Part shown: in pieces, positions 7,330-11,645 of the stretch | How the letters are laid out: each line of letters begins with the position of its first letter | How positions within the stretch are numbered: position 1 is the stretch's first letter | UHGV virus genome: UHGV-1394707 | Direction: 5' to 3' (one strand) | Length of the DNA: 32,637 bases | From: a virus | Position numbers and translations under genes: made by a program | The notes under the pieces: generated by a model | Told to the model about the DNA's origin: nothing | Seen by the model: the letters and a program-made list of their open reading frames with translations, nothing else | Database searches by the model: none

Positions 7330-7859
7330 TGTTTTTTAAAACGTCAAATCCCGCAGCACTGCTGGCGTGGGACCAGTTTATGGCGAACTGTCTGAAACTA
7401 CGCGAAGAAGCCCGCCATCTTGATAAGGTTCTGGGTTGTGGTTGCCGGTCAGTATTCAGCACAGGTATTGGTGGGCGTCATTTTCATGGCGTGAATTTTC
7501 CGGGGAATGAGCGCCCCTTCTCGCGGGAGCTGTGGACCGTACAACGGCCCGCATCAGGTAACAGTTGCAGGCCCAGAACTTCGCGAATACCTGCTCATCT
7601 CAGGGAGCAGGCAAGAGAGCTGGCGAAAATATGGCAGGAGAATATTCCGGTCACTTACGCCCGCACAGACGCTCTTTTACCCGCACTGGGACTGGATTTC
7701 AGCGCAACAATATTCGGGCCGCTCCAGTGGTTCCGTGTTGGTGATGTGATTTACGTCATGACGGGGATGACACCCGCGCAAGGCCGCATGACTGAAATCC
7801 TTTCTGACGAATTTATCCGGGCGCAAAAACAGGCGGAGGTAAACAATGGAAAACAATGA
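7329..7859 (+). CDS. Hypothetical early protein
   Basis: 176 aa from ATG 7329 (overlaps upstream stop, TGATG); the ORF-track frame opens at 7290. Confidence 0.45.
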   Translation: MFFKTSNPAALLAWDQFMANCLKLREEARHLDKVLGCGCRSVFSTGIGGRHFHGVNFPGNERPFSRELWTVQRPASGNSCRPRTSRIPAHLREQARELAKIWQENIPVTYARTDALLPALGLDFSATIFGPLQWFRVGDVIYVMTGMTPAQGRMTEILSDEFIRAQKQAEVNNGKQ

Positions 7860-8028
7860 AACATCGTATTCGTGGCTGGGGAAATTTACCACGGTGAAAC
7901 AGGAATGCCCGACCTGCGGTAATGAATCCCCTGAATATCTGAAAGAGTGCCCTCATTGTGGCGGGCAGAAATGCAACCACTGCGATATGGGCGATGACAC
8001 GGCGTGCATGAATTGTGAAGGTGAATAA
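7846..8028 (+). CDS. Cys-rich small protein (two tandem zinc-ribbon-like CxxC pairs)
   Basis: 60 aa, RBS GGAGG; CPTCG..(10)..CPHCGGQKCNHC..(6)..CMNC; low GC. Confidence 0.55.
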   Translation: MENNETSYSWLGKFTTVKQECPTCGNESPEYLKECPHCGGQKCNHCDMGDDTACMNCEGE

Positions 8029-8029
8029 T

Positions 8030-8320
8030 ATGAATAATGAAACTAAATTTACGCCTAAAGACCTGGATGAAGAACTGGTGAAAGCTAAGATGCTTGAGCG
8101 TATGCGCGATGTTATTGAGACTGCAATCAGTAAAGGCTTTTCTGCGAGAGAGGCCCTTGAAATTATGACACGGGAAATTCATCTCATACGCGACGAAGTT
8201 TTGTTGCATAACAAAAAAGCCCACAACAATATTGTTTGTCGTGAGCTTGGCGTTGATGATTCAGCGGTTATTCCACAGCGTCAGTATCTGTGTGCTCTGA
8301 TGAGAGGTTCCCGGCATTAA
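8030..8320 (+). CDS. Hypothetical early protein
   Basis: 96 aa from ATG 8030 (RBS AGGTGA; ORF track opens at GTG 8015); helical-looking N-terminal 60 aa; C-terminal tail overlaps a convergent - strand ORF. Confidence 0.5.
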   Translation: MNNETKFTPKDLDEELVKAKMLERMRDVIETAISKGFSAREALEIMTREIHLIRDEVLLHNKKAHNNIVCRELGVDDSAVIPQRQYLCALMRGSRH

Positions 8321-8627
8321 CAATATCCTGCCTTGAAGCCCAGAGCTTATTGAGCAGCAGATCAACATACTCATCGGCCTCAAAATCCAGTTCTTCGAAC
8401 GTTTTTCGGTTCTTATAGCTGGCCTGTGTATTTCTGATGATGTCATAAGCATCGTGCATGTTGATAACACCGTTTTCAATCAGCTTAATCATCAGATTAC
8501 CGACCAGCATAAAACCGGTTATACCAAAGAATTTATCCTGGTTATTAACAGGGGTGTCTTTCTGGTTTGTTTCGAAATCTGGGTTTTGTTCATCATCCGA
8601 CACTGTATGTTGTTCTTGTTCAGCCAT
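8268..8627 (-). CDS. Acidic hypothetical protein on the opposite strand (candidate acquired accessory gene)
   Basis: 119 aa with RBS AAAGGA 6 nt before the ATG; about 24 Asp/Glu vs 9 Lys/Arg; GC clearly below the prophage average; the + strand frames across this region look non-coding. Confidence 0.55.
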   Translation of the reverse strand: MAEQEQHTVSDDEQNPDFETNQKDTPVNNQDKFFGITGFMLVGNLMIKLIENGVINMHDAYDIIRNTQASYKNRKTFEELDFEADEYVDLLLNKLWASRQDIVNAGNLSSEHTDTDAVE

Positions 8628-8696
8628 AATATTTCCTTTTATGTTATTACTGAATATGGCGGTGTTGCAGCACCGCCTCTTTCCGGAGGTACGATC

Positions 8697-9248
8697 ATGA
8701 GTCGCACATCCCTGATTAAATTAATCCATGTCGCCCGTCGGGAGCTACAACTCGACGACGACACTTACCGCGCTTTTCTGATGCAGAAAACGGGCAAAAT
8801 CAGTTGCCGCGAGCTTACGGTTACGCAACTGGAACAGGTGCTCGATGCCATGAAAGAACGCGGCTTTAAGAAGCTGAATAAATACCCCCGTCGCCGCTTT
8901 AAGGAACATGTCACACCCCGCGAGAAGGTGTATAAAATCTGGCAGCAGATGGCAGAAGACGGTTTTATTACCGATGGCGGTGATGTGGCGCTGGATAAAT
9001 ATGTTCAGCGCCTGACCGCGAAACGCAACGGCGGACAGGGCGTTTCCACACTGGCGTGGTGTCATGGCGACACGCTGCTGACAGTCCTCGAAACACTCAA
9101 GCAGTGGCACATCCGCTGTATTCGTGAAGCCTTTTCCCGTCACGGGCTTCCATTGCCGGTCAGTCCGTCCGGTCGTGAACTGCGCGGCTATGATGCCATG
9201 ACGGCGGCTTATGCCCATGCCAGAAAGACACGGAGGATGGCACAATGA
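8697..9248 (+). CDS. gemA: GemA-like early protein
   Basis: 183 aa from ATG 8697 (RBS GGAGG), directly upstream of and overlapping mor (ATGA); same size and position as Mu GemA. The ORF-track extension to 8454 is rejected. Confidence 0.75.
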   Translation: MSRTSLIKLIHVARRELQLDDDTYRAFLMQKTGKISCRELTVTQLEQVLDAMKERGFKKLNKYPRRRFKEHVTPREKVYKIWQQMAEDGFITDGGDVALDKYVQRLTAKRNGGQGVSTLAWCHGDTLLTVLETLKQWHIRCIREAFSRHGLPLPVSPSGRELRGYDAMTAAYAHARKTRRMAQ

Positions 9249-9634
9249 CGGAAGATTTATTTGGTGATTTGCAGGATGACACCATCCTGGCACATCTTGA
9301 CAATCCCGCAGAGGATGCGTCACGCTTTCCGGCACTGCTGGCGGAGCTGAACGATTTACTGCGCGGGGAATTGTCCCGGTTAGGTGTTGATCCGGCCCAT
9401 TCACTGGAGATTGTTGTGGCTATCTGTAAGCATCTGGGCGGCGGTCAGGTCTACATTCCACGCGGTCAGGTTCTGGATTCGCTGATTCGGGATTTGCGTA
9501 TCTGGAATGATTTCAACGGTCGCAATGTTCACGAACTGGCAATCCGTCATGGTGTGACATTTAACACAGTCTATAAAGCCATCCGACGAATGCGGCGTAT
9601 AAAGTATCGTCAGTATTCCCCCCCTTTGTTTTAA
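9245..9634 (+). CDS. mor: Mor, middle operon regulator (Mor/C family activator)
   Basis: 129 aa; MTEDLFGDLQDDTILAHLDNPAED.. and ..FNGRN..TFNTVYKAIRRMRR.. match Mu Mor as recalled; last gene of the early operon. Confidence 0.88.
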   Translation: MTEDLFGDLQDDTILAHLDNPAEDASRFPALLAELNDLLRGELSRLGVDPAHSLEIVVAICKHLGGGQVYIPRGQVLDSLIRDLRIWNDFNGRNVHELAIRHGVTFNTVYKAIRRMRRIKYRQYSPPLF

Positions 9635-9641
9635 ACAGTAA

Positions 9642-9665
9642 AGCCGGTTAATCCGGCTTTTTTTA
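9642..9665 (+). terminator. Intrinsic terminator at the end of the early operon
   Basis: AGCCGG-TTAAT-CCGGCT hairpin followed by TTTTTTT, 8 nt after the mor stop. Confidence 0.75.
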
Positions 9666-9716: not shown

Positions 9717-10277
9717 ATGCCTGAGTTTTCCCCTGCATTCCTTCATTCGCTGAATTTCGTTATACGCCCTGATGTTGAAGGTGGCTATGTTAATGATCCT
9801 GCCGACCGTGGCGGCGAAACGAAATACGGTATTTCTGACCGTCGCGACGGTGTTATTGATGGCAAAACCGATGTTAACGGTGACGGAAAACCTGATACCC
9901 GCATTAAGGATTTAACCCGCGAGCAGGCGGCGCAGATCTACTGGCGTGATTACTGGCTGGCGGCAAAGTGTAACGAATGGCCTGATGGCGTTTCCTTATT
10001 CGTTTTTGATGCTGCCGTTCAGCACGGTGTTAAACGCGCGATTCAGATCCTCCAGGCGGCAGCAGGTGTTGATGATGATGGCATCGTCGGTAAAAACACA
10101 CGCGCAGCCGTTCTGCGTGCCGATACTGACTGGCTGCTGTTGCAGTGCTTCCTGCGTCGTTCCCGCTATTACGCAGGGATTATCAAATCCAGTGCCTCGC
10201 AGGGGAAATATCTGAATGGCTGGTTTAACCGTCTGGATCTGCTCGCCAGCGCCTGTCGGGAGGTTCTGCATGGGTAA
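9717..10277 (+). CDS. GH108-family muramidase with C-terminal peptidoglycan-binding domain
   Basis: 186 aa, RBS AGGAGGG; ..VEGGYVNDPADRGGETKYGI.. and ..EQAAQIYWRDYW..FDAAVQHG..DDGIVGKNTRAAV.. are typical of Glyco_hydro_108 + PG_binding_3 proteins. Confidence 0.7.
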   Translation: MPEFSPAFLHSLNFVIRPDVEGGYVNDPADRGGETKYGISDRRDGVIDGKTDVNGDGKPDTRIKDLTREQAAQIYWRDYWLAAKCNEWPDGVSLFVFDAAVQHGVKRAIQILQAAAGVDDDGIVGKNTRAAVLRADTDWLLLQCFLRRSRYYAGIIKSSASQGKYLNGWFNRLDLLASACREVLHG

Positions 10278-11126: not shown

Positions 11127-11645
11127 ATGATGGCGGGGATACCAAAAAAACTGAAAGCCGCACTGCTGGCGGCAACGATTGCCGGTGGCGGTGTGGGTGG
11201 TTATCAGGAAATGACCCGTCAGTCTCTGATCCACCTGGAAAATATCGCTTATATGCCTTACCGCGATATTGCCGGTGTGCTTACGGTCTGTGTGGGACAT
11301 ACCGGGCCGGATATCGAAATGCGCCGTTACAGCCATGCGGAGTGTATGGCTCTCCTCGACAGTGATTTAAAACCGGTTTATGCGGCAATCGATCGTCTTG
11401 TCAGGGTGCCGCTGACGCCATATCAGAAAACGGCGCTGGCAACGTTTATTTTCAACACCGGTGTTACCGCATTCAGTAAATCAACGCTGCTGAAAAAACT
11501 CAATGCCGGTGATTACGCCGGAGCGCGTGACCAGATGGCCCGCTGGGTGTTTGCCGCAGGCCATAAATGGAAAGGACTGATGAACCGTCGCGAAGTGGAA
11601 ATGGCAATCTGGAATATCAGGGGGGCGGATGACCTTCGCCAGTAA
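11127..11645 (+). CDS. lys: Endolysin, GH24/T4-lysozyme type with N-terminal SAR-like segment
   Basis: 172 aa; E-8-D-5-T catalytic spacing in ENIAYMPYRDIAGVLT; N-terminal Ala/Gly-rich weakly hydrophobic stretch KLKAALLAATIAGGGVGGY; same size and position as Mu lys. Confidence 0.85.
   Translation: MMAGIPKKLKAALLAATIAGGGVGGYQEMTRQSLIHLENIAYMPYRDIAGVLTVCVGHTGPDIEMRRYSHAECMALLDSDLKPVYAAIDRLVRVPLTPYQKTALATFIFNTGVTAFSKSTLLKKLNAGDYAGARDQMARWVFAAGHKWKGLMNRREVEMAIWNIRGADDLRQ

Follow-up and report, generated by a model that had tools for sequence, protein, structure and literature searches.

What is a minus-strand open reading frame of 119 codons doing between gp14 and gemA in a Mu-like phage, and is it a gene at all? 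The question arises from the virus genome UHGV-1394707, analysed here over its full 32,637 nt (hereafter the window), which is a Mu/D108-like prophage: a minus-strand repressor gene (686-1345) is followed by transposase A, B, kil, gam, gp11-gp14, gemA, mor, C and lys, and then by the structural genes. A first-pass annotation of this DNA had singled out the ORF as an opposite-strand gene in an otherwise rightward early operon, and had suggested that it was a horizontally acquired, DNA-mimicking anti-restriction or anti-defence protein. We find that the ORF is almost certainly a real gene, judging by comparison with its relatives, and that it belongs to the family of Mu gp15, but that it is not an insert and that its presumed role in mimicry finds little backing. 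The features of the locus on which the argument turns are as follows.

8030 to 8320, plus strand: gp14 (96 aa; phrog_6075), convergent with the gp15-like gene, whose coding sequence it overlaps at 8268-8320; present in the D108 and Mu annotations.
8268 to 8627, minus strand: gp15-like coding sequence from the ORF list, ATG start, 119 aa; D108-type allele of Mu gp15 on the reading argued below (PHROG 38610).
8634 to 8639, minus strand: Shine-Dalgarno sequence AAAGGA, 6 nt ahead of the gp15-like ATG.
8658 to 8677, no strand assigned: palindrome GGCGGTG-TTGCAG-CACCGCC, between the gp15-like start and the gemA Shine-Dalgarno sequence, followed by TCTTTCC on the plus strand.
8685 to 8689, plus strand: gemA Shine-Dalgarno sequence GGAGG, with the ATG at 8697.
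8697 to 9248, plus strand: gemA (Pfam PF06252 match, E 3.7e-31), the divergent neighbour in every locus.

The basic description given in the first-pass annotation holds throughout: a minus-strand ORF of 119 aa preceded by AAAGGA, with 24 acidic against nine basic residues (13 Asp and 11 Glu versus six Lys and three Arg, pI 4.28), an overlap of about 53 nt with gp14, and a palindrome upstream. Its GC content is also below average, as had been noted (41.9% versus 52.8% for the whole window), but this does not set the ORF apart, since the convergent gp14, and every allele of both genes, is low in GC too. A ribosome-binding motif of the form AAGGA, AGGAG or GAGAGGA lies at Shine-Dalgarno distance in 10 of 10 distinct intergenic sequences, and the adjoining bases differ. 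The repressor ORF has a PHROG match as well, while none was obtained for the other five long minus-strand ORFs that were scanned downstream of ner.

The ORF can be regarded as more than a chance opening because the same frame is open in all intact relatives and its dN/dS lies below 1, which bears out the earlier suggestion of a true opposite-strand gene. Nei-Gojobori estimates for the minus frame range from 0.15 to 0.45 across alleles (0.15-0.18 among Klebsiella alleles, 0.37 between the window and the 64% identical locus L014, and 0.43 between loci L012 and L026), and near-identical allele pairs differ by synonymous changes only (4:0, 3:0, 2:0 and 1:0). When all six frames are compared, pN/pS is lowest for the annotated minus frame in six of seven pairs; the exception, L012-L026, has one antisense frame slightly below it (0.44 versus 0.47). 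That antisense frame carries stops, and a low value there is expected since the wobble positions are shared. The minus frame is also the sole frame of the six without stops in every intact allele compared.

The opposite view, that the ORF is a chance antisense frame and the true coding sequence lies on the plus strand, is implied by the revised Mu GenBank record AF083977, in which minus-strand gp15 was dropped and a plus-strand ORF, Mu_54, put in its place; that swap indicates that the curators judged the Mu allele differently. In its favour, the D108 records leave the region unannotated, and the codon-aligned antisense frame in the window, which is in phase with gemA, runs for 120 codons without a stop. 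Across the alleles, however, plus-strand openings are anything from 23 to 120 codons long and show no conservation, with stops at differing places and a longest stretch of 51 aa in L012. A plus-strand frame conserved at full length beside a decaying minus frame would have spoken against the gene, and we observe the reverse, as plus-strand frames gain stops and the minus frame stays open. Homologues at 36-64% identity are moreover recovered as proteins, and both the conserved Shine-Dalgarno sequence and a strand-specific terminator (see below) lie on the minus strand. We therefore consider coding on the plus strand very improbable, and the comparative data contradict the choice of Mu_54 in AF083977. 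Mu is a textbook phage, yet its gene 15 is poorly grounded, being omitted from the D108 records and moved to the other strand in the revised Mu record; purifying selection, the conserved Shine-Dalgarno sequence and a strand-specific terminator with compensatory changes together settle the coding strand.

The terminator in question was found by a terminator scan and is supported by covariation, and it lies within the partner gene.

8207 to 8248, minus strand: intrinsic terminator of the leftward cistron, a stem of 13 bp (8248 to 8217) followed by TTTTGTTATG.

It begins 20 nt past the gp15-like stop codon and is antisense to gp14 codons (..NKKAHNNIVCRELG..), and folding of the minus-strand RNA gives a perfect stem. 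All relatives, and Mu too, have an equivalent hairpin and T-tail behind the stop codon. Of the cells in an alignment of 11 distinct loci, 90.9% are paired, as against 30-53% when the 3' partner is slid, and five of the 13 pairs show compensatory changes on both sides; the covariation score was reached by none of 500 shuffles. The pairing is also strand-specific. Eighteen G.U cells would be A.C mismatches on the plus strand, so that pairing drops from 90.9% on the minus strand to 80.4% on the plus strand, and the T-tail (6-9 T of 10 in all 11 loci) is present in the minus-strand direction only. The stem is built from codons for gp14 residues (..NKKAH..CRELG..), and these residues shift with it, as in L012, where AH..RE becomes AR..HK. 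Since the terminator is kept by covariation and with this strand asymmetry, leftward transcription through the gp15-like gene appears to have been selected across the family, and we hold with good confidence that the gene is an autonomous, terminated transcription unit. This defines a testable leftward unit ahead of gemA-mor, and should be useful for annotation as well as for work on Mu early-to-middle regulation and on the semi-essential genes.

To which family does the gene belong? The 119-aa protein is 100% identical in D108, in Mu_3F6 (VUD37876.1) and in E. coli JCKP02 (WP_021526008.1, PGAP annotation). The D108 copy (complement of 7856-8212 in NC_013594/GQ357916) falls in what its records leave as a 376-bp gap between gp14 and gemA. 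The allele is rare, occurring in one of 5,426 complete E. coli genomes. Over 7800-9300 the window is 98-99% identical throughout to D108 and Mu_3F6, while only the flanks of this region match Mu, SfMu and the Yersinia Mu-like phages; megablast against Mu covers 60% of it in two pieces at 98.4% identity. A four-way alignment delimits the exchanged segment.

About 8053 to 8657, no strand assigned: mosaic cassette that takes in the whole gp15-like gene and the greater part of gp14.

Within this cassette, whose right edge is the palindrome at 8658-8677, the D108-type and Mu-type DNA are too diverged for reliable alignment, whereas the flanks are about 98% identical. The Mu counterpart is gp15 (Mup15, NP_050619.1; 88 aa), which occupies the same slot on the minus strand between gp14 and gemA, overlaps the 3' end of gp14 by 62 nt (53 nt for the D108 type), and shares the upstream palindrome and an equivalent downstream terminator hairpin inside gp14. 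BLASTP between Mu gp15 and the D108 allele gave no significant pairwise similarity. The link emerges from profile comparisons: the 119-aa protein matches phrog_38610 (E 8e-83) and phrog_32893 (E 5.4e-7), and Mu gp15 matches the latter (E 5.9e-4); an hhalign comparison of the family with Mu gp15 scores E 2.7e-4 with a probability of 42% over the core helix-hairpin (residues 32-68 versus 6-42); and the two types can be aligned end to end with MAFFT. Both share the helix-hairpin (F/Y)D(I/V)AG(F/Y)...L...LV.K..I. The D108-type allele is 31 aa longer than Mu gp15, with an additional N-terminal tail and a longer C-terminal tail, and differs greatly in net charge (-15 versus -1). Taken together, the slot, the flanking signals and the profiles make it highly likely that the two are homologous. 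The ORF thus belongs to an existing, unstudied family, for which our literature searches returned neither a dedicated paper nor strand-specific RNA results, and reveals no new kind of system.

An exhaustive phmmer search against 1.84 billion representatives, followed by a profile search, recovered relatives at 36-64% identity in Mu-like prophages of Klebsiella/Raoultella, Citrobacter, Salmonella and E. coli, with the Klebsiella homologue present in 753 blocks of the assembly collection. As scans of metagenomes, genomes and viral contigs added few further lineages, the family looks confined to enterobacterial Mu-like prophages. In every locus fetched with its context, Mu, SfMu and D108 included, the slot is identical: the gene is divergent from gemA and tail-to-tail with a gp14 homologue. 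These partner genes, Mu's among them, encode about 96-121 aa, overlap the gp15-like gene by 36-74 nt and share the motif GMLERIR...REI.LI...KA.D.LVRRELGVDD. In nearly all loci, GC content is 40-47% for gp14 and the gp15-like gene, compared with 52-56% for gemA. Low GC would then be an old property of the two-gene module, and is therefore no mark of a recent acquisition here. The proposal of a horizontally acquired insert fails on the same evidence, since relatives always sit at the same slot, Mu has gp15 there and the low GC is module-wide; presence and absence among Mu-like prophages, which had been put forward as a check, likewise show a long-standing module that is missing in some phages. 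As far as these genomes reach, gp14 and the gp15-like gene are a conserved, low-GC, overlapping pair upstream of gemA-mor in the Mu-like phages of Enterobacteriaceae.

The phages in which the gene is missing or broken show that it is accessory. In the Yersinia phage vB_YpM_3 the gene has been cleanly removed: the lost stretch starts at the gp14 stop codon and ends shortly ahead of the palindrome, with a CTGAT microhomology at the junction. gp14 is intact in this phage, which still forms plaques. In PhiR68_1, gp13-gp15 are absent and two unrelated plus-strand genes stand at the module's place, and in a Salmonella lineage the gp15-like gene is cut short by a stop after 43 codons. From this deletion, absence and truncation in natural genomes, the gene is evidently non-essential.

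What kind of protein, then, is encoded? In the conserved core, a hydrophobic helix is joined by a turn to a second helix, from which a variable linker leads to a third. The first two elements of this core read FDIAGFLLAGNIMIKLVEKGVID, the helix-hairpin being F-D-I-A-G-F-L-L-A-G-N...L-V-E-K-G-V-I-D, and the third helix reads ..YIDxLFxKLW; F39, L41, G43, N44, L49, E51, V54, I55, T67, A84, L91, L95 and W96 are invariant. AlphaFold models of this allele and of an 84-aa Klebsiella homologue each contain three helices, with a mean pLDDT of 55 for the former (residues 1-32 and 102-119 below 50) and of 67 for the latter (helices 1-2 at 73-86). Searches with gp15, gp14 and their relatives yielded no significant match in Pfam, NCBIfam or PADLOC, and in PHROGs only families without an assigned function; a PDB search with the family profile returned nothing below E 0.05, and fold searches with these low- to moderate-confidence models gave no informative match.

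The proposal that the protein is a DNA mimic, in which an acidic surface imitates DNA and titrates a host restriction or defence enzyme, took its appeal from the acidity of the ORF, and that part stands. The D108-type protein, with its net charge of -15 and its low pI, is small, very acidic and encoded in a phage early accessory region, much like T7 Ocr, ArdA, T4 Arn and T7 gp5.9; its gene lies in the semi-essential early region that also holds Gam, and varies between phages, as counter-defence genes often do. Unlike in those mimics, however, acidity is not conserved in the gp15 family: net charge is 0 to -7 in relatives, and the N-terminal extension, which is confined to the D108-type allele and L014, has a net charge of -7 in the former and 0 in the latter. 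It also evolves faster than the core (pN/pS 0.53 versus 0.28). Examination of structure and charge distribution, which had been recommended, places 19 of the 24 acidic residues outside the central segment 33-80, mostly in tails that are predicted to be flexible (pLDDT below 50) in a model that is itself of low confidence. The strong acidity is thus specific to this allele and located mostly in these low-confidence tails. The sequence and fold searches also returned no similarity to known mimics, and the idea loses most of its support; we regard mimicry as improbable.

The explanation that we favour, with somewhat better than even confidence, is that we are dealing with a genuine accessory gene, translated but not essential: a D108-type allele of the Mu gp15 family, which forms a self-contained leftward cistron and whose product acts via protein contacts. 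The cistron has its own Shine-Dalgarno sequence and its own terminator, antisense in gp14 codons, and would therefore have to be transcribed independently of, and head-on against, the rightward early operon. Its product would be a small cytoplasmic three-helix protein in which, going by the character of the sequence, the helix-hairpin core and the third helix may act by binding another protein or by self-association, the acidic N- and C-terminal tails of the D108-type allele being probable lineage-specific appendages. We put action through protein-protein contacts rather than DNA mimicry at about an even chance, and our best guess for the protein is a small, helical, protein-binding accessory factor. 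As the gene points towards the early promoter Pe, its product may be made in a moron-like manner while Pe is silent, in the prophage; that it is expressed mainly from the repressed prophage is a tentative suggestion, which we rate as less likely than not. Speculatively, convergent early transcription upon induction would shut the gp15-like gene off, and gp15-like transcription may in turn hinder read-through into gemA-mor. The resemblance to prophage morons (lambda bor/lom, HK97) lies in the small size, the accessory nature, the deviant GC, the own terminator, the dispensability for lytic growth and an orientation that rules out membership in the flanking operon. Unlike morons, however, the gp15-like gene is a long-standing allelic module at a fixed slot rather than a sporadic insertion, it overlaps the coding sequence of its neighbour, and promoter scans gave weak candidates only.

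The region between the gp15-like start and gemA deserves separate attention, as the first-pass annotation had placed a hairpin upstream of the ORF and just before the gemA Shine-Dalgarno sequence. Its position is confirmed, but its assignment changes. The palindrome is present in PhiR68_1, which has no gp13-gp15, and in vB_YpM_3, where gp15 is deleted; being retained in phages without gp15, it is not a gp15 expression signal and goes with gemA. Over 10 distinct loci, 97% of its cells are paired, and the stem is nearly invariant, with a variable or flipped loop and two compensatory pairs in the Citrobacter type (GGCGGCT..AGCCGCC). A short T-rich run comes after the palindrome on the gemA side: TCTTTCC in the window, TCTTTTTT in L012 and CATTTTTT in L014. 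A terminator scan calls the palindrome on both strands in L012, and leaves it uncalled in the window and in PhiR68_1. The best reading is a putative leaky terminator or RNA hairpin of the gemA leader, which may double as a recombination boundary of the cassette. We reject it as a site for Mor or C, as the Pm dyad (AAAGCCGGTTAATCCGGCTTT, 9641-9661) is unrelated in sequence and, from the coordinates, the spacing to either start codon is unlike that of a -43.5 activator site. Nor does it look like a repeated operator, given a single further loose match to GGCGG-N8-CCGCC in the window, as by chance. Rfam gave no match within 7800-9300. For the minus strand, a consensus sigma-70 scan and a position-weight scan over 20 loci returned weak, poorly conserved promoter candidates only, one of them a CAyAwT motif right beside the palindrome. 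In the Mu record, a rightward promoter labelled "semi-early" is annotated upstream of gemA, overlapping the gp15 start and the palindrome, and the gem operon is described, in a passage of PMC3820752 citing Paolozzi and Ghelardini (1992), as expressed in lysogens; for these two reasons, the gp15-gemA intergenic region is probably a divergent control region.

This arrangement invites the alternative that the unit acts mainly in cis or as RNA, with convergent transcription or antisense RNA gating Pe read-through into gemA-mor and the protein secondary. In this view the unit would lock or time the middle and late cascade by gating leaky or induced Pe transcripts. In all loci, the unit does stand precisely where the long early operon gives way to gemA-mor, its predicted leftward RNA would be the complement of the early transcript along its entire length, about 110 nt at the 3' end of gp14 included, and the adjoining palindrome is terminator-like in the early direction; the annotated Mu promoter upstream of gemA and the expression of gem in lysogens, as mentioned in PMC3820752, fit as well. 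However, the amino-acid sequence is under purifying selection and the Shine-Dalgarno sequence is conserved, which argues that the protein itself matters. In addition, the palindrome persists without the gp15-like gene, phages without the unit are viable, and the scans yielded no convincing minus-strand promoter. We consider such a role unlikely. A broader version combines both levels: the gp14/gp15 pair and the palindrome would form a head-on gate that blocks leaky early transcripts from Mor, and the protein would also target a host DNA-binding or defence factor. The leftward cistron would then be active in the prophage, with its terminator in the partner's codons, and acidic disordered tails would arm the D108-type protein. 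If this were true, gp15 would be a lysogeny-stabilising or anti-defence element overlooked in four decades of Mu genetics, but we think it a long shot.

The constant company of gp14 raises a further alternative to an accessory factor with its own leftward cistron, namely that the gp15-like protein is devoted to gp14, as its antagonist, antitoxin or chaperone, and that the pair is inherited and exchanged together through their interaction. gp14 accompanies the gp15-like gene in every locus that carries the latter, the Mu/D108 mosaic cassette exchanges the two jointly, and low GC is common to both. Yet the overlap of the genes and the position of the gp15 terminator inside gp14 already explain their joint inheritance, and a dedicated partnership seems rather unlikely to us. 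It follows from vB_YpM_3, which keeps gp14 intact, deletes gp15 and still plaques, that gp14 is not a toxin in need of gp15, and the Salmonella lineage, too, has truncated its gp15-like gene.

The records of D108 and Mu conflict over the strand that codes at this locus. The ORF in D108 that corresponds to the gp15-like gene, a 119-aa minus-strand CDS and D108-type allele of Mu gp15, carries no annotation in the D108 records (the unannotated gap is NC_013594, 7906-8281), and the revised Mu record (AF083977, 7960-8127) substitutes a + strand ORF, Mu_54, for minus-strand gp15. Sequence comparison favours the minus strand rather than the + strand as the coding strand here. In the window, the frame of gemA, the divergent + strand neighbour, is open for about 120 codons 5' of the gemA ATG; this open stretch runs antisense to the gp15-like gene with the codons of the two in register. 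It gives rise to a spurious 264-aa ORF with a GTG start (8454-9248), and the extension is interrupted by stops in relatives. A dual-coded stretch (8207-8248) lies within gp14, the convergent + strand gene (8030-8320), where the codons for ..NKKAH..CRELG.. build the stem and T-tail of a minus-strand terminator, and compensatory stem changes in relatives are accompanied by changes in gp14 residues.

Other phages have lost or replaced the gp15 region. Compared with L002 (3530-3790), a related locus, the Yersinia phage vB_YpM_3 (MT374852, 1000-1062) shows a natural, clean deletion of Mu-type gp15, which spans from the gp14 stop to the palindrome ahead of gemA (GGCGGTG-N6-CACCGCC in the window) with CTGAT microhomology at the junction; this plaque-forming phage retains an intact gp14 and the hairpin despite the deletion. 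Escherichia phage PhiR68_1 (PV340575, 725-1800) has two unrelated + strand ORFs of 222 and 113 aa, neither with a Pfam match, in place of the gp13-gp15 region. It also retains the hairpin ahead of gemA (AAGCGGTG-TGAT-AGCACCGCTT, then TTTAAAGG), and its record places the gemA start upstream, reading across it. A Salmonella-type allele stops early, after 43 codons (IMG/VR UViG_2757320581, L027 1492-1623; proteins P0016 and P0017); it is carried by 64-76 contigs and is extended upstream across the palindrome by some gene callers. One family member is plasmid-borne, not chromosomal (Klebsiella sp. WOUb02 plasmid unnamed6, NZ_CP170106, about 774-775 kb), with the usual arrangement of gemA start, palindrome and gp14 homologue.

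Leftward genes may recur in the neighbourhood of gemA. One sub-lineage carries a further ORF on the opposite strand, 134-142 aa long and with no Pfam match, between gemA and mor at four related loci (local coordinates):

L012, 4950-5378
L013, 4981-5385
L014 and L015, 4964-5386

Three other genes of the window are as follows:

7846-8028, gp13, a 60-aa Cys-rich zinc-ribbon protein
9717-10277, a 186-aa GH108 + PG_binding_3 muramidase, between mor and C
11127-11645, a Mu-type lys ORF

The likeness of gp13 to Lar-like restriction-alleviation families is faint and not significant (E 0.3-0.5). The mor-C position of the muramidase gene is occupied by gp18/gp19 in Mu and D108. Since this gene is present alongside the Mu-type lys ORF, the prophage appears to encode two cell-wall hydrolases.
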